A stretch of DNA of 18,730 nt. Source: an uncultured Eubacteriales bacterium (lineage in GTDB: Bacteria > Bacillota > Clostridia > Oscillospirales > CAG-272). This document shows positions 1-17,239 of this stretch, one piece after another; position 1 is the stretch's first letter; every line of letters begins with the position of its first letter. The stretch covers positions 1-18,730 of the forward strand of contig CAKSDP010000030.1 of NCBI GenBank assembly GCA_934446065.1, in the 5' to 3' direction. Made by a program: the position numbers and the translations under genes. The notes beneath the pieces were generated by a model that saw nothing but the letters and a program-made list of their open reading frames with translations, did not search any database and was not told where the DNA came from.

Positions 1-33
1 AAATAGATATAGTGAGTGCAGGGTTTTATTTTA

Positions 34-513
34 GGCTCCCTTGTGTAAAGGGAGCTGTCAGCCGCACGGCTGACTGAGGGATTGTTGCACAAGTGAATCA
101 ATATACCGGCAAACCCCTCTGAAATTACTGTTTACTTCGCTATTCAGGCTCCGGATCACCTTGATCCCATACTTCTCTAAAAATTCTGTTCGCTCAGCAT
201 CTTTCAGTATGTTCTCATCGTCAAAATGTTGTGATCCGTCAAGTTCAATAACAATTTGCGCTTTTGCACTGTAAAAATCTGCGATATAATTGCCGAGAAT
301 TTTCTGTCTGGAAAATCGTACGGGATAATCCCTTAAGAAGTCATACCACAAATGACATTCTTCTTTTGTCATTTCTTTACGTAATTTTCTTGCAAACGGA
401 ACAAGCATATGATTGTGTTTTGAACGCATATCAAGGTCTCCGTTTTTTCTTCTTAATTTTATCAATCCCTCCGTCAGCCTTGCGGCTGCCACCTCCCTTT
501 ACACAAGGGAGGC
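34..513 (-). mobile_element. 480-bp cassette: one DUF559 endonuclease gene between ~47-bp imperfect terminal inverted repeats, nested in repeat copy E
   Basis: 34..80 and the reverse complement of 467..513 match at 42 of 47 positions by hand alignment, plus 4 more matching bases inward. Each arm contains a full P hairpin (ctccctt-loop-aagggag) and a second hairpin (gtcagcc-gcac-ggctgac at 57..74; gtcagcc-ttgc-ggctgcc at 473..490). The other four family copies have a single P hairpin and no ORF at this position. Confidence 0.6.
58..429 (-). CDS. DUF559 domain endonuclease (Vsr-like PD-(D/E)XK fold)
   Basis: The translation ARKLRKEMTKEECHLWYDFLR..RFSRQKILGNYIADFY..QIVIELDGSQH..RTEFLEKYGIKVIRSLNSEV fits the DUF559 family pattern. 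I prefer ATG at 429..427, which has GGAG 8 nt upstream (acGGAGaccttgatATG). The frame also opens with GTG at 492, but that lies inside the right inverted repeat. The stop TGA (60..58) lies inside the left inverted repeat. Confidence 0.85.
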   Translation of the reverse strand: MRSKHNHMLVPFARKLRKEMTKEECHLWYDFLRDYPVRFSRQKILGNYIADFYSAKAQIVIELDGSQHFDDENILKDAERTEFLEKYGIKVIRSLNSEVNSNFRGVCRYIDSLVQQSLSQPCG

Positions 514-627
514 TTGGGTTTGCACAAACCAATTATATATGCCCAGTATAAAGCTTTTGCGGAGCTTTTCTCGAAAAGCGACCGTTCCCCTTTCTCGAAA
601 AGCGGCTCGTTCCTTTCCAACTGTCCC

Positions 628-7270: not shown

Positions 7271-7304
7271 AACGCTCCTCGGTTATTGTGTATTTATTTA
7301 AGTA

Positions 7305-7700
7305 TTTCAGCAGGGGGACCTTTTGAAAAAAGCTCCCCCTGCACCCCTCCAAAAAGATGCGAATAAATGGATTTGTTGCGAGAGGAGATTTTTGAAAAAA
7401 TCCCCTCTCGCGCTCTCCCTAAAAACTTTTAACTAAATAAAAGGATTAAGTAAGTGCAGAATCTTAGCCAAGGCTCCCTTGTGTAAAGGGAGGCTTTGGT
7501 CTGCCTAAACTCCACGTCTGTGGCGGGAGCCGCGAGAGCGGATACCGCTCACTTGCAGTTTTCTGATAGTTCGGACAAACCATATCGTGGGATATCTCTC
7601 GACTTCAACTGAAGTCTACGTCTTGCACAAACCAAATAAAATGTACCCAGTATAAAGTTCTTTGCGCCACTTTCTTTCAAGAAAGTGGCTCGTATCCCCT
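7305..7700. repeat. Copy A of the modular intergenic repeat (order H1, H2, L, P, S, T, Q)
   Basis: Modules are H1 hairpin 7310..7342, H2 hairpin 7378..7411, P hairpin 7472..7494, S core 7498..7633 and Q hairpin 7666..7689. In the S core the left closing arm is degenerate (ggtCtgCCTaa). The copy fills the rbfA stop (7702) to nrnA start (7270) gap and aligns along its length with copies B, C and D. Confidence 0.9.
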
Positions 7701-7701
7701 T

Positions 7702-8049
7702 TTACTTTTGTTCCTCAATGTCGCGTAAAAGCTCGGCAATGTGAGCACCGCGCGCAACCGATTCGTCAAGAACGAAGGATATCTCGGGAGTCTGCCTGAG
7801 ATTAAGCTCCTCGGCAAGACGCGAGCGAACAAACGCAGCCGCGTGCTTGAGCCCCGCGCGCAGCTCGCGCTCGTCATGCTCACCCATGACCGAGTAAAAT
7901 ATCTTCGCGTATTTGAGATCTGCCGTAACATCAGCACCCGTCACCGTAATGAATACGTCCGATACGCGCGGATCCTTGATCTCGCGTACGATCACCGCGC
8001 ACTCTGCCGCAACAGCATCGTTGATCCTTGAGCGCCTGTATTTCGCCAT
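7702..8049 (-). CDS. rbfA: 30S ribosome-binding factor RbfA
   Basis: 115 aa. The translation RINDAVAAECAVIVREIKDPRV..VTVTGADVTADLKYAKIFYSV is typical of RbfA. The start is ATG at 8049. Confidence 0.92.
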   Translation of the reverse strand: MAKYRRSRINDAVAAECAVIVREIKDPRVSDVFITVTGADVTADLKYAKIFYSVMGEHDERELRAGLKHAAAFVRSRLAEELNLRQTPEISFVLDESVARGAHIAELLRDIEEQK

Positions 8050-9403: not shown

Positions 9404-9495
9404 TCTTTTCAATCGCTAAACTTTTAGTTTTACCTAACCGATAGTTTCTAACCGCTAAATCCTTAATTTTACCTAACCGATGGTTTCAACCGATG
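9404..9495. repeat. 39-bp tandem direct repeat, 2 full units plus a partial third, between gyrA and the lipoprotein gene
   Basis: Units 9404..9442 and 9443..9481 match at 30 of 39 positions by hand alignment. The 21-mer ttttacctaaccgat.gtttc recurs at 9428..9448 and 9467..9487 (20/21). A partial third unit (ggtttcaaccgatg) follows. The core (t/c)aaccg recurs four times. Confidence 0.8.
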
Positions 9496-9510: not shown

Positions 9511-12060
9511 TTACTCGGCGGTATCTTCCGCCGGGTTCTCGACCTCGCCTGACGGAGCAGACTCATCCGCCGGAGCGTCAGTCTCGTCCGAAGCCTCCTC
9601 AGCCGCAGGCGACACCGCGAAATTGACGATGGACGCGCCGTCGGCGACACGCATGATTATAACTCCGGCGGCTCCTCGTCCGTACTCCGGAATTCCGTCG
9701 GCAGGCGTGCGGATCATTATTCCCTCGTCGGTCATCATCATAAGGTCGTCGCCCTCACCGACGATGGATATTCCGCAAAGGCGGCCGGTCTTTTCGGTGA
9801 CGTTCTGGCAGATGACGCCCTTGATGCCGCGGCCCTTGGCGTCGAAAAGGTCGAACGCCATGCGCTTGCCGTAGCCGCGCTCTGTCACGGTGACGAGCGA
9901 GCGCCCGCGCTGCCAATCCATATCGGCACGGATGACTGCGGCTCCGCATACCTCGTCGCCCTCGCCGAGGCGGATACCGCGCACACCGCGCGAGAGTCTG
10001 CCCGTACAGGTGACGTGGCGCGACGCAAAGCGCGCGGCGATTCCGTTTTTCGTTGCGATCATTACGTCGTCGTCATCGCCGATGATGTCTACAAATATCA
10101 GCTCGTCGCCCTCGTCGAGGGTTATCGCGATCTTACCCGCGCGGCGCTGATACTCGAACTCGGACAGGCGGCATCTCTTGATCGTACCGCGGCGCGTGAC
10201 CATCATGAGATACAGATCCTCGCGGAACGTGGTCACGGGGATAACTGCGGTGACGTTCTCGTCGGGAGCCGTCTCAAGTATATTTACGATATTCGTACCC
10301 TTTGCGGTACGGCTCGCCTCGGGAATCTGGTACGCCTTTTTGCTGTACACGCGTCCGAAATCGGTGAAGAACATGAGCAGCGCATGGCTGTTTGAGATGA
10401 TAACGCTGCGGATGAAGTCCTCGTTTTTCGTACCCATGCCGATGATTCCCTTGCCGCCGCGCTTCTGTGCGGTATAGTCATCTGCGGGCTGACGCTTGAT
10501 ATATCCGGCGTCGGTCATGGTGATGACGCAGTTATGGCGCTCGATGAGGTCCTCGTCAAGAATCTCGTTGTGCGCCTCGACAAGCTCGGTACGGCGTGCG
10601 TCGCCGTATTTATCGCGGATCGCGGTCATCTCCTCGCGGATGATGGCGCGGATCTTTGACTCGTCGGCGAGAATTCCGCGCAGCTCCGATATTTTCGCGT
10701 AAAGCTCGCGCAGTCTCTCCTCGATCTTCTCACGCTCGAGACCTGAAAGTCTGCCGAGCGGCATGGTGACGATCGCCTGAGACTGCGGGTCGGACAGGGC
10801 GAATCTCTCCATGAGGGCTGCCTTTGCGGACGGGATATCCGCCGACGCGCGGATGAGCTTTATGACCTCATCGATATTGTCGATGGCGATTTTATATCCC
10901 TCGAAGATGTGCGCCTCCGCCTCGGCTTTTTCGAGGTCGTATTTTGTACGGCGCGTAACTACGTCCTCTTGGAAGAGGATATAGTTCTTGAGGATCTCCT
11001 TGAGTCCGAGCTGCTTCGGCTCGCCGTTGACGAGCGCTACCATATTCATGGCGCAGGTATCCTGGAGGAGAGTATATTTATAGAGCTGGTTGAGGATGAC
11101 CTGACCGTTTGCGTCGCGGCGGTACTCGATCACGACGCGGATGCCGTTCTTCATATCGGACTCGTCGCGGATCTCGGTTATTCCCTCGATGACCTTATTC
11201 TTGACCTTATCCGCGATGCCCTCGAGCATGGTGCTCTTATTGACCTGGTAGGGTATCTCGGACACGATGATGCGGTGGTGCTCCTCGTCTACCTCGGCGC
11301 GGGAGCGCATAATTACTCTGCCGCGGCCCGTGGCGTAAGCCTCGTATATTCCGGACGCGCCGTAGATTATGCCGGCGGTAGGAAAGTCGGGACCTTTGAT
11401 ATACTTCATGAGGTCGGTAAGGGTGGCGTCGGGGTTATCCATATAGTAGAGCGTGCCGTCGATGACCTCGCAGAGGTTATGCGGCGGGATATTGGACGCC
11501 ATTCCGACGGCGATACCGATGGTGCCGTTGACAAGGAGGTTCGGGAACCTCGACGGGAGGACTGTCGGCTCCTTGCGGCTGTTATCAAAGTTCGGTACAA
11601 AATCGACGGTATCCTTGCCGATATCGCGCATAAGCTCGTCGGCTATACGGCTCATTCTCGCCTCGGTATAACGGTAAGCGGCGGCGCTGTCTCCGTCCAC
11701 GCTTCCGAAGTTGCCGTGGCCCTCGACGAGGGGATATCTCAGCGAGAACGGCTGCGCCATACGCACCATTGTGCCGTACACGGCAGAGTCGCCGTGCGGG
11801 TGATATCTACCGAGCACGTTACCGACCGTCGTTGCCGATTTACGGAACGGGTTATTGTGCGTCAGCCCGTCCTCGTACATAGCGTACATGATTCGACGCT
11901 GTCCCGGCTTCATTCCGTCGCGGACGTCCGGCAGCGCGCGGTCCACAAGCACCGACATCGAATACTCGATGAACGCTTGTCTGAACCGCGAGTTCAGCTC
12001 GATATCAACTATCTTCTGATCCTCAAAATGAAGATCCTCGTTCTTATGTTTCTCTGCCAA
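9511..12060 (-). CDS. gyrA: DNA gyrase subunit A
   Basis: 849 aa. It has [18 protein letters not shown], the [28 protein letters not shown], the catalytic [11 protein letters not shown] Tyr and a GyrA-box QKRGGKG in the C-terminal domain. It lies directly downstream of gyrB. The start is TTG at 12060 with gtAAGGAGGggagatt upstream, and there is no nearby in-frame ATG. Confidence 0.97.
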
Positions 12061-12101
12061 AATCTCCCCTCCTTACGGGATGGATTTTTTATGAAATTGG
12101 G

Positions 12102-12498
12102 GTTTCGGCAGGGGGGACCTTTTTGAAAAAAGGTTCCCCCTGCACCCCTCCAAAAAATACGGATAAATGGGTTTGTTGCGAGAGGAGATTTTTGAAAAAA
12201 TCCCCTCTCGCGCTCTCCCCAAAAACTTTTAACTAAATAAAATGGATTTAGTAAGTGCAGGATTTTAGTTTAGGCTCCCTTGTGTAAAGGGAGGCTTGGG
12301 TTCGTGCAAACTCCACGTCCATGGCGGGAGCCGCGAGAGCGGAAACCGCTCACGTAAAGTCTCCTGATAGTTTGGATACCCATAGCGTGTGATATCTCTC
12401 GCCTTCAGCTTCGGAATTCGTCTTGCACAAACCTATTAAATATACCCAGTATAAAGTTCTTTGCGCCACTTTCTTGAAAGAAAGTGGCTCGTATCCCC
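12102..12498. repeat. Copy B of the modular intergenic repeat (order H1, H2, L, P, S, T, Q)
   Basis: Modules are H1 12108..12143, H2 12178..12211, P 12273..12295, S core 12299..12433 and Q 12465..12488. The S closing arms are ggttcgtgcaa and ttgcacaaacc, with one mismatch. The copy fills the gyrB stop (12499) to gyrA start (12060) gap. Confidence 0.92.
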
Positions 12499-14469
<1,971 letters not shown>

Positions 14470-14487
14470 TTAAATGGTGGATTTATA

Positions 14488-14914
14488 AACGGATAAATGG
14501 GTTTGTTGCGAGAGGAGATTTTTGAAAAAATCCCCTCTCGCGCTCTCCCAAAAAAGCACGGTGGGATTTCAGCAGGGGGACCTTTTTGAAAAAAGCTCCC
14601 CCTGCACCCCTCCAAAAACTTTTAACTAAATAAATAGATTTAGTGAGTGCAGGATTTTAGTTTAGGCTCCCTTGTGTAAAGGGAGGCTTGGGTTTGTGCA
14701 AACTCCACGTTCATGGCGGGAGCCGCGAGAGCGGATACCGCTTACTCGAAGCCTCCTGATAGTTCGGATAAACTAAAACGTGGGATACCGCTCGACTTCA
14801 ACTGAAGCCTATGTCTTGCACAAACCAATTATATATGCCCAGTATAAAGTTCTTTTGGCGGCTTCCCACCGGGAAGGCGAGCTTTTCCTTTCAAGAAAAG
14901 AACACGTATCCCCT
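14488..14914. repeat. Copy C of the modular intergenic repeat (order H2, H1, L, P, S, T, Q, Q; H modules swapped relative to A and B)
   Basis: Modules are H2 14508..14541, H1 14572..14605, P 14665..14687 and S core 14691..14826 with a perfect 11-bp closing inverted repeat. The Q hairpins are 14862..14876 (cttccc-acc-gggaag) and 14882..14900. The copy fills the remB stop (14915) to gyrB start (14457) gap. Confidence 0.92.
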
Positions 14915-15163
14915 CTACTTCTCCGCGCGATCGCGAAGAGTCTTTGACGAAATGTGCGAAAGGATCACGCGCTCACCTTCCTTGTCCTCGCATAGAACAA
15001 ACGAGCGCGGAATGTCGGTCCCCGCCGAGTCAACAATGCCTGCCTCCTCAGCGCGCCTCAGAAAATCCGCAGTAACCTTCGGCGTCACGTCACCGTCAAG
15101 ATCAAAGAATCCTATCACAGACGAGCGCTTCACCGTCCGGTGCGAGCCTAAGTGAATGTACAT
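14915..15163 (-). CDS. remB: DUF370 family protein (RemB/YaaB-like)
   Basis: 82 aa. MYIHLGSHRTVKRSSVIGFFDLD...DFL..AEE.G.V......PRSFVL......RVILSHISSKTL matches the DUF370 pattern, and the gene sits just upstream of gyrB as yaaB/remB does in Bacillus. Its ATG (15163..15161) shares one base with the dnaN TGA stop. Confidence 0.8.
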   Translation of the reverse strand: MYIHLGSHRTVKRSSVIGFFDLDGDVTPKVTADFLRRAEEAGIVDSAGTDIPRSFVLCEDKEGERVILSHISSKTLRDRAEK

Positions 15164-16826: not shown

Positions 16827-16860
16827 GTCCGGGGAATTTACGACGAGTGATGACGAATAG

Positions 16861-17239
16861 GTTTTTCAGCAGGGGGACCTTTTTGAAAAAAGGCTCCCCC
16901 TGCACCCCTCCAAAAACTTTTGAACTAAACAAAATGGGTTTGTTGATCAAGTGAGTGCAGGATTTTAGTTTAGGCTCCCTTGTGTAAAAGGAGGCTTGGG
17001 TTTGTGCAAACTCCACGTCTGCGGCGGGAGCCGCGAGAGCGGAAACCGCTCACGTGCAATTTCCTGATAGTTTGGATAAACTAAAACGTGGGATACCGCT
17101 CGGTTTCACCTGAAGCTTATATCTTGCACAAACCAATTAAAATGTACCCAGTATAAAGTTCTTTTGGTTCTTTTCTTTCAAGAAAAGAACTCGTTTCCTT
17201 TTCACGAAAAAGTGGCTCGTTCCCTTTACCCCGTCCCCA
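16861..17239. repeat. Copy D of the modular intergenic repeat (order H1, L, P, S, T, Q, Q; no H2), lying between the dnaA stop and the oriC box cluster
   Basis: Modules are H1 16869..16903, P 16973..16995 (one stem mutation, aaaaggagg) and S core 16999..17134 with a perfect 11-bp closing inverted repeat. Q is at 17167..17190 (gttcttttc-tttcaa-gaaaagaac), with a weaker second hairpin near 17197..17212. The copy abuts the dnaA stop at 17240. Confidence 0.92.

Follow-up and report, generated by a model that had tools for sequence, protein, structure and literature searches.

A single-gene DUF559 nuclease cassette between composite hairpin arms, with a candidate REPIN/RAYT-like partnership of gene and repeats

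An 18,730-nt stretch of DNA from an uncultured Eubacteriales bacterium (GenBank assembly GCA_934446065.1, contig CAKSDP010000030.1; this whole stretch is hereafter the window) opens with a small gene of the DUF559 family that is enclosed by two long, hairpin-forming inverted repeats, and the question raised by this locus is what kind of element the gene and its two arms constitute. The reading preferred here, to which we give a probability of about 0.6, is that positions 33-514 are a member of a very large and previously unnoticed class of single-gene cassettes, in which gene and repeats are partnered as in the REPIN/RAYT systems but with an enzyme of a different superfamily. A full-text search retrieved no literature linking the DUF559 family to hairpin repeats; subscription literature lay outside its scope, and a prior description is possible.

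The longest inverted repeat in the window joins positions 33-84 to 463-514 (52 nt, 47 of 52 or 90% complementary, 378 nt apart). The arms reported in the initial annotation (34-80 and 467-513, 42 of 47 matching) are the core of this repeat, and its division of each arm into a pyrimidine/purine hairpin (P), a second hairpin (H2) and a purine tail holds, save that the 7-bp H2 stem of the right arm (473-490) has one mismatch. In the left arm the stems lie at 35-42/48-55 (P) and 57-63/68-74 (H2). The P loop is GTGTA in the left arm and TACAC in the right one; the arm duplication is thus inverted, as had been proposed, and not direct. Either strand of each arm, folded as single-stranded DNA, gives a pair of neighbouring hairpins with energies of -13.5 to -15.7 kcal/mol (z = -4.1 to -6.2), and none of 200 shuffled sequences is as stable. 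The DUF559 gene is, as described earlier, the sole gene between the arms, no transposase or integrase gene being found inside the cassette. It lies on the minus strand in a longest frame of 58..492, with a likely ATG start at 427-429 preceded by GGAG and a TGA stop at 58-60 within the left-arm H2; the downstream arm therefore encodes the C-terminus of the protein (..SLSQPCG). The GC content of the gene is 39.5%, against 55% for the flank in the window. A sigma-70 promoter scan gave nothing above chance inside the cassette and one weak site in the host repeat upstream, and the gene is probably transcribed by read-through. The Rfam 15 covariance models gave no match in positions 1-600 and three weak chance matches elsewhere in the window, and Rfam at E <= 1 together with a tRNA scan of the window returned nothing relevant.

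The family assignment made from the sequence is borne out by a Pfam DUF559 (PF04480) match over residues 12-111 (E = 9.3e-27; 93.5 bits, curated threshold 20.6). The Neisseria gonorrhoeae DUF559 structure 3hrl (NGO0050) matches at E = 1e-9 with its catalytic residues aligned, and D51, E62, D64, H68, D77, R80, R93 and N96 are invariant in 35 homologues, the expected D ... ExD ... H residues among them. In a Foldseek comparison with an AlphaFold model of pLDDT (predicted local distance difference test) 64, used for fold-level neighbours only, the closest structure is 3r3p, the catalytic domain of I-Bth0305I (E = 4.6e-4, TM 0.79 target-normalised), followed by 3hrl (TMt 0.76) and by Vsr itself (1vsr, TMq 0.64). 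As judged from sequence and model, the window protein is an intact Vsr-fold nuclease with predicted activity; PADLOC and PHROGs gave only weak domain-level matches for it. Its subfamily is very large: more than 8000 members, 122-125 aa long and sharing about 70% identity or more, were found, nearly all of which end in QSLSQ. This near-universal ending shows that the downstream arm is conserved together with the gene.

The association of arms and gene extends well beyond this subfamily. Homologues of 51-79% identity were compared from Oscillospiraceae, Faecousia, Acutalibacteraceae, Ruminococcus, Christensenellaceae and Megasphaera, with 80 loci taken from 185,579 species genomes and further loci from metagenome assemblies. 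Under a strict criterion of perfect stems, a P hairpin lies within 130 bp of the gene in 66 of 77 homologues and on both sides in 39 of them, and a covariance model (R1, built from 54 arms) recovers an arm beside at least 6 of the 11 genes that the strict scan missed (L021, L024, L029, L030, L035, L044). Most homologues thus carry arms, in keeping with the earlier proposal that the inverted repeats belong to the gene. The upstream (U) arm has the design AGCC, P hairpin, GGT-GGCA, H2, TGAC, GGAGGGA, ATG, and the downstream (D) arm has the design CTCCCTCAG-TCAGC, H2, GCTGACAG, P hairpin, GCCTTGG. In every cassette the two P loops are reverse-complementary, and they change together between lineages (TTGTGTAAA/TTTACACAA, CTGATGA/TCATCAG, CCCTTGAGGG/CCCTCAAGGG); H2, a usual but not invariable part of the arm in the wider class, is free in sequence and is not alike in the two arms of one cassette. 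Four positions distinguish U from D arms in all lineages, and two of these create the GGAGGG ribosome-binding site and, in the window subfamily, the TGA stop. As far as can be read from the sequence, the arms also serve as expression signals: the ribosome-binding site is the upstream tail, and the downstream H2 of the window subfamily holds the stop codon.

The purine tail is a repeat of the 3' half of the P stem, and the two covary (5.46 versus 4.85 +/- 0.05 when permuted). Every arm holds three copies of one motif of about 7 nt, one of them inverted, and the pyrimidine half of P is complementary to the Shine-Dalgarno sequence of the gene. In 80 of 84 loci the GC content of the gene is about 10 points below that of the flanks. 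Gene and upstream neighbour share a strand in 47 of 63 loci, and many cassettes lie inside operons. No target-site duplication was found outside the arms of 43 cassettes, where the sequence next to the arms only lengthens the inverted repeat (CCAAG..CTTGG).

Arms are not confined to the surroundings of the gene. A strict scan for P, an adjacent H2 and a purine tail yielded 172 arms in 1.10 Mb and none in composition-matched shuffles, and 84 of the 172 are more than 120 bp from any DUF559 gene; R1 gives 333 matches at E <= 0.01 in 1.12 Mb. The gene-less forms comprise solo arms, arrays, and convergent U+D pairs of 110-150 bp with 9-40 bp between the arms. Three near-identical gene-less pairs occur in both orientations within 20 kb of locus L039. 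Arm pairs that could be typed always consist of one U and one D arm. Adjacent convergent pairs spaced 261-700 bp apart enclose a DUF559 gene in 24 of 25 cases, the remaining pair holding nested arms only, and none of the 25 has other cargo. At locus L052, one gene is surrounded by tandem arrays of three U and three D arms (9839-9994 and 10346-10500). Nested or tandem arrays, including nested gene-less pairs, are also seen at L022 (16700-17300) and L073 (1-350), and are reminiscent of the bacterial interspersed mosaic element (BIME) arrays formed by repetitive extragenic palindromic (REP) sequences. Among 74 gene-distant arms in Clostridia, 19 share the P type of the gene at the same locus, compared with 3.5 +/- 2.1 when loci are permuted.

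The structure of these arms appears to be maintained at the level of DNA. When 127 distinct arms are aligned on the model, 86% of cells pair versus 69% in shuffled alignments, and the covariation score is 0.417 versus 0.159, a value reached by none of 500 shuffles; this test is limited in that the model guided the alignment and a hairpin criterion governed the choice of seed arms. The inner pairs of H2 make use of CG, GC, AU and UA alike, with 0-5 of 127 arms unpaired at each and only 1-2 G:U pairs among about 400 cells. A helix that tolerates any Watson-Crick pair and almost no wobble would seem to need pairing on both strands, which indicates that H2 is selected as a DNA hairpin or cruciform and not as part of a transcript. 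This argument uses H2 only, because MAFFT places the low-complexity P stem out of register and G:U counts in the P helix are therefore unreliable.

The same arrangement recurs in other phyla, a dispersed arm family of which the initial annotation made no mention. Distant DUF559 genes of 33-55% identity on large replicons are flanked by hairpin inverted repeats of the CCTCCC..GGGAGG type, 17-105 nt long, in four of four Deinococcus and three of three Sphingomonas cases as well as in Novosphingobium, Azospirillum and Sinorhizobium (Table 1); Picosynechococcus offers a weak case of 17 nt. Of 10 small DUF559 genes sampled from Deinococcus, Sphingomonadales, Azospirillum, Sinorhizobium and Picosynechococcus, 9 have the arms, the last of these weakly. 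The cassettes in the hpa operon occupy three different positions in three Deinococcus species, and the arm order in Deinococcus is inverted relative to the gene (H2, pyrimidine tail, P, gene). At S. parapaucimobilis locus L118 the arms consist of P and tail only, without H2, and at L116 the pntAB start is closely preceded by the 3' half of the downstream P (GGGGAGGA), which may provide the ribosome-binding site of pntAB. Sphingomonas parapaucimobilis YK209 has three DUF559 genes, two of them differently armed, and the two corresponding repeat families are found in about 87 and about 116 places. The arm of Sinorhizobium meliloti L132 is present in 29 places in its chromosome and in 453 places in 124 Rhizobiaceae plasmid records, and each L132 arm contains two CCCTCTCCCC-N6-GGGGAGAGGG hairpins. 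Upstream of a ycjD-like tblastn match in E. coli (L110, 1436-1480) there is a perfect 19-bp palindrome, at a distance of about 20 bp.

In the window the cassette is itself nested in a composite intergenic repeat of about 250-300 nt that occurs five times in 18.7 kb. This repeat, which has no Rfam match, holds two kinds of bidirectional terminator-like palindromes, a solo P hairpin, a GCCACTTTCTT/AAGAAAGTGGC hairpin, and a conserved 115-nt module bracketed by the inverted repeat GGTTTGTGCAA/TTGCACAAACC. As had been observed, the four other copies have a single P hairpin and no open reading frame at the point equivalent to the cassette, although the hairpin at 16975-16993 has a stem mismatch that the earlier description did not include. 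The contrast is one between paralogous units of a single genome and not between alleles, so the initial term "filled versus empty polymorphism" does not apply. The solo P of the empty units (AGGC-TCCCTT..AAGGGA-GGCT) joins a D-type outer half to a U-type outer half, with a G.G (or C.C) mismatch at the base of the stem. These hairpins are best read as the collapsed remnants of cassettes or of gene-less pairs; a chimeric solo P is equally to be expected if a broken hairpin is repaired from a cassette donor. Collapse or descent is the more economical reading for this genome, since the species has the cassette throughout, the P sites close by stand empty and only one further chimeric solo P was seen elsewhere (L083). 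The GGTTTGTGCAA/TTGCACAAACC repeat flanks the 115-nt module in four copies, and in the cassette-bearing copy it has collapsed to the palindrome GGTTTGCACAAACC (517-530) and the module is missing; it is a second palindrome in the host repeat that behaves like P.

The gene-bearing cassette is inherited at a single locus. In every contig that encodes the exact window protein (20, and one more from a metagenome scan) the gene follows holA, and the cassette is fixed and single-copy between holA and rnmV in the window species. The protein variants P0019, P0066 and P0067 (97-98% identical), represented on hundreds of contigs, all share a single different locus, flanked by a GDSL lipase gene and a major facilitator superfamily (MFS) transporter gene. 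The orthologous locus, a comparison called for by the initial annotation, is without the cassette in relatives whose holA is 88%, 71% and 60% identical. In the sister species with 88% identity (L100, 1740-2110), the holA-rnmV spacer holds two head-to-head 115-nt modules and no P hairpin. A single metagenome scan for empty alleles, made with a unique 28-mer of the holA flank, gave that one further contig, which was also filled. Some genomes carry two or three divergent paralogues, co-residents being 58-78% identical to each other, and in three of the four genomes checked (seven of the eight paralogues) each is nearer to another genome's gene than to its co-resident. A tblastn search of plasmids and phages gave no close relative and thus no sign of such a vehicle; it matched two "phage" contigs, unverified as such, at 47-50% identity, and large replicons with distant homologues. 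A length difference of about 46 bp downstream of the gene among strains of the P0067 species was considered as a gain or loss of an arm and is an unrelated indel. In most contigs of the window species (L001-L010) the assembly stops no more than about 100 bp from the cassette or the repeat.

These observations bear directly on the suggestion of the initial annotation that the nuclease homes into P hairpins, in which case the product of an active, free-standing homing endonuclease gene would cut naive P hairpins, the cassette being copied into them by double-strand-break repair. Homing would account for a cassette placed exactly where four other units have one P hairpin, for close relatives that are empty at the orthologous locus and for the missing target duplication; the surrounding repeat unit would provide the flanking homology, and among solved structures a homing endonuclease catalytic domain comes closest. 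It is nevertheless unlikely. The approximately 21 contigs of the species are all filled at one locus with no second gene copy found, the four P sites within 17 kb have remained unfilled, and close protein variants in another species are just as strictly confined to one locus. As U/D chimeras with a mismatched stem base, the solo P hairpins fit a product of collapse better than a naive target, and homing leaves unexplained the abundant gene-less arms as well as the H2 and tail that the supposed target lacks. The second suggestion made for this locus, that the gene-bearing copy is the autonomous relative of the non-coding copies, is favoured over homing: the chimeric solo P hairpins fit collapse, and related genomes contain arm derivatives that lack the gene. 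That mobility is driven by the nuclease is our inference.

It might instead be supposed that the arms are independent repeats, similar to REP sequences or to miniature inverted-repeat transposable elements (MITEs), that are moved by an unseen enzyme or by replication slippage, and that DUF559 is a passenger or a host gene that tolerates or exploits them. The arms far outnumber the genes, most distant arms are not of the arm type of the local gene, there is no catalytic precedent for transposition by such a nuclease, and the arms supply the ribosome-binding site and the stop codon. However, co-varying arms enclose the same gene family in at least four phyla, the mid-size convergent pairs described above enclose DUF559 in all but one case and never another gene, two arm families in one Sphingomonas genome each accompany a DUF559 gene of their own, and no transposase was found in or beside the cassettes examined. 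A passenger gene is thus improbable, and the cassette reading remains the preferred one.

A purely RNA-level role is a good deal less probable still. The arms would then be 5' and 3' stem-loops that stabilise the mRNA or gate its translation, the pyrimidine half of P acting as an anti-Shine-Dalgarno sequence against the GGAGGG tail; the upstream tail is indeed the Shine-Dalgarno sequence, to which the 5' half of P is complementary and with which it covaries, and the gene is usually co-oriented with its upstream neighbour. Such a role does not explain why H2 pairs almost without G:U, why arms exist without a gene, in both orientations and in arrays, or why downstream and gene-less arms retain the same architecture. 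A programmed inversion switch, in which the inverted repeats that overlap the end of the coding sequence flip the gene, is hardly credible, since the gene has one orientation relative to its flanks in every contig of three lineages (assemblies record the majority state only), no recombinase gene is adjacent and the product would stay unchanged, while the published enrichment of "DUF559 domain-containing protein" among predicted inversion targets (odds ratio 14.3; Milman et al. 2023, PMC9881135) is explained by the arms themselves.

Among known systems the closest parallel to the cassette is the REPIN-RAYT pair, in which REP-associated tyrosine transposases are accompanied by hairpin repeats (Nunvar 2010, Bertels and Rainey 2011; PMC2817692, PMC3116915). 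In both, the nuclease gene is single-copy, is inherited vertically and has inverted copies of its own hairpin repeat on its two sides; the repeats also occur as intergenic singlets, inverted doublets and arrays (here in related genomes, the window having solo P hairpins and no full gene-less arm), a genome may contain several gene/repeat pairs, and no target-site duplication is seen. The one defining trait that departs is the enzyme, here a PD-(D/E)XK Vsr-fold protein of about 120 aa and there an HUH/Y1 transposase, and the cassette is therefore an analogue of REPIN-RAYT and not a member. Its arms further differ in being composite, in lacking the GTAG/CGTC tag as defined for REPs and in supplying a ribosome-binding site and a stop codon, and its hosts include Clostridia and Deinococcus.

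Other comparisons are more partial. The I-Bth0305I or EDxHD homing endonucleases (PDB 3r3p; PMC3239194) share the closest solved catalytic fold and are selfish-element nucleases of the Vsr lineage, but I-Bth0305I is intron-encoded, has an extra DNA-binding region and a long unique target in recA, lacks hairpin inverted repeats and dispersed non-coding copies, and is 20% identical. E. coli Vsr, YcjD and NGO0050 belong to the same Pfam family or clan and have the D..ExD..H residues; Vsr, however, is a T:G mismatch nickase coupled to Dcm methylation, and arms are lacking on either side of the E. coli and Neisseria DUF559 genes that were examined. MITEs and their parent DDE transposons likewise have terminal inverted repeats and short two-end gene-less derivatives that outnumber the gene copy, whereas the ends of the cassette are self-folding hairpins conserved in structure rather than in sequence; an assignment as a DDE MITE was rejected on the lack of a target-site duplication and of a transposase. 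The IS200/IS605 elements resemble it in their small size, their sub-terminal DNA hairpins read as structure and their lack of target duplication, but their ends are not inverted repeats of each other, and this assignment was rejected as well, the HUH TnpA gene being absent here. An attC or integron cassette was also considered and rejected. The S. meliloti arms, finally, are multi-copy palindromic intergenic repeats as are the RIME and Sm-repeat elements, that is, the Rhizobium-specific intergenic mosaic elements and the Sm-repeats of Sinorhizobium reportedly described by Osteras in 1995. The L132 arms may be these classical elements, and to our knowledge no enzyme has been assigned to the RIMEs.

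If the preferred cassette reading is correct, the DUF559 nuclease would act on the arms. It may recognise them as DNA structures, either as extruded cruciforms or as single-strand hairpins at replication forks, and would nick or cut them, after which host replication or repair would copy, collapse or delete the arms without a target-site duplication. Several points weigh against the preferred reading. The link between protein and arms is one of association, the structural model is of modest confidence, and we know of no strand-transfer route for a 123-aa PD-(D/E)XK nuclease. Within the window, R1 finds the two gene-flanking arms only and no gene-less full arm; in Clostridia, 55 of the 74 gene-distant arms have a P type unlike that of the neighbouring gene. 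No recent movement of a gene-bearing cassette was detected in any species examined, and the DUF559 loci examined in E. coli, N. gonorrhoeae and Synechocystis are without arms.

A broader proposal may be put forward more tentatively and falls somewhat short of even odds. Small DUF559 proteins might be the dedicated enzymes of a phylum-spanning class of hairpin repeats, with a Vsr-fold nickase that reads composite arms structurally and has them copied or collapsed; this would have given rise to large populations of palindromic repeats in Clostridia, Alphaproteobacteria (possibly including repeats of the RIME type) and Deinococcus.

The positions of the cassette, its host repeat and its counterparts in other phyla are collected in Table 1. 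Elsewhere in the window, a 39-nt unit is present twice in tandem at 9406-9483 (79% identity, repeat family D20), in the spacer upstream of a gyrA-like gene.

Table 1. Coordinates of the cassette, the surrounding repeat and the solo P hairpins in the window, and DUF559 loci with flanking arms in other phyla.
Feature	Position	Strand	Description and basis
Downstream (D) arm	33..84	-	Gene orientation: CAATCCCTCAG, H2 (57-74), P (35-55); DNA fold z -5.3, -6.2; covariance model R1 60.5 bits, E = 1.9e-13
DUF559 (Vsr-like PD-(D/E)XK) nuclease gene, 123 aa	58..429	-	Open reading frame; Pfam PF04480
A-rich 33-nt spacer with GGAG ribosome-binding site, upstream arm to start codon	430..462	-	Sequence; such a spacer is absent in most relatives, the GGAGGG tail of the arm lying 4-8 nt before the ATG (87 loci compared)
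Upstream (U) arm	463..514	-	Gene orientation: P (492-512), H2 (473-490), tail GGAGGGATTG (463-472); DNA fold z -4.1, -4.8; R1 62.5 bits, E = 5.5e-14
Left flank, part of one ~250-nt composite repeat copy hosting the cassette	1..32	.	Direct-repeat family D5; 78-94% identity to the four other repeat copies
Right flank, continuation of the host repeat copy	515..600	.	Repeat families D7, D8; alignment; hairpin scan
Composite repeat copies	7280-7720, 12080-12520, 14480-14930, 16840-17220, 1-54 + 493-600		
Solo P, upstream-type and downstream-type halves, one G.G mismatch at stem base	7474..7492	.	
Solo P	12275..12293	.	DNA fold z = -5.3
Solo P	14667..14685	.	
Solo P, one stem mismatch	16975..16993	.	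Repeat families D5, D8
D. psychrotolerans L111	between paaD and paaZ		56 nt, 98%
D. proteolyticus L115	hpa operon		56 nt, 95%
Deinococcus sp. NW-56 L113; D. aetherius L114	hpa operon		35 nt + 23 nt; 35 nt, 86%
S. parapaucimobilis L116 (1128-1590)	between pntAA and pntAB		P-H2-tail, as in Clostridia
S. parapaucimobilis L118 (1136-1585)	between sufB and sufC		33 nt, 88%
S. parapaucimobilis L134	adjoins dnaG		Arms on both sides
Novosphingobium L117	position unannotated		66 nt, 89%
Azospirillum L128	adjoins nirK		24 nt, 100%
S. meliloti L132 (228-352, 816-920)	adjoins IS4-family transposase gene		105 nt, 96%

In practical terms, the arms break metagenome assemblies and generate spurious peptide tails and spurious "programmed inversion" calls, and the gene with its arms offers biochemistry a structure-specific nuclease/substrate pair of about 0.5 kb. 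DUF559 is among the commonest uncharacterised nuclease families, and palindromic repeats without an enzyme are common in many bacteria; the link between gene and repeat across phyla turns both the role of the nuclease and the origin of the repeats into a testable hypothesis. If the broader proposal is true, the cassettes would represent a second, independent invention of the REPIN/RAYT lifestyle and would provide a function for DUF559; the link itself suggests a second route, unrelated to the HUH transposases, by which hairpin repeats may populate bacterial genomes.

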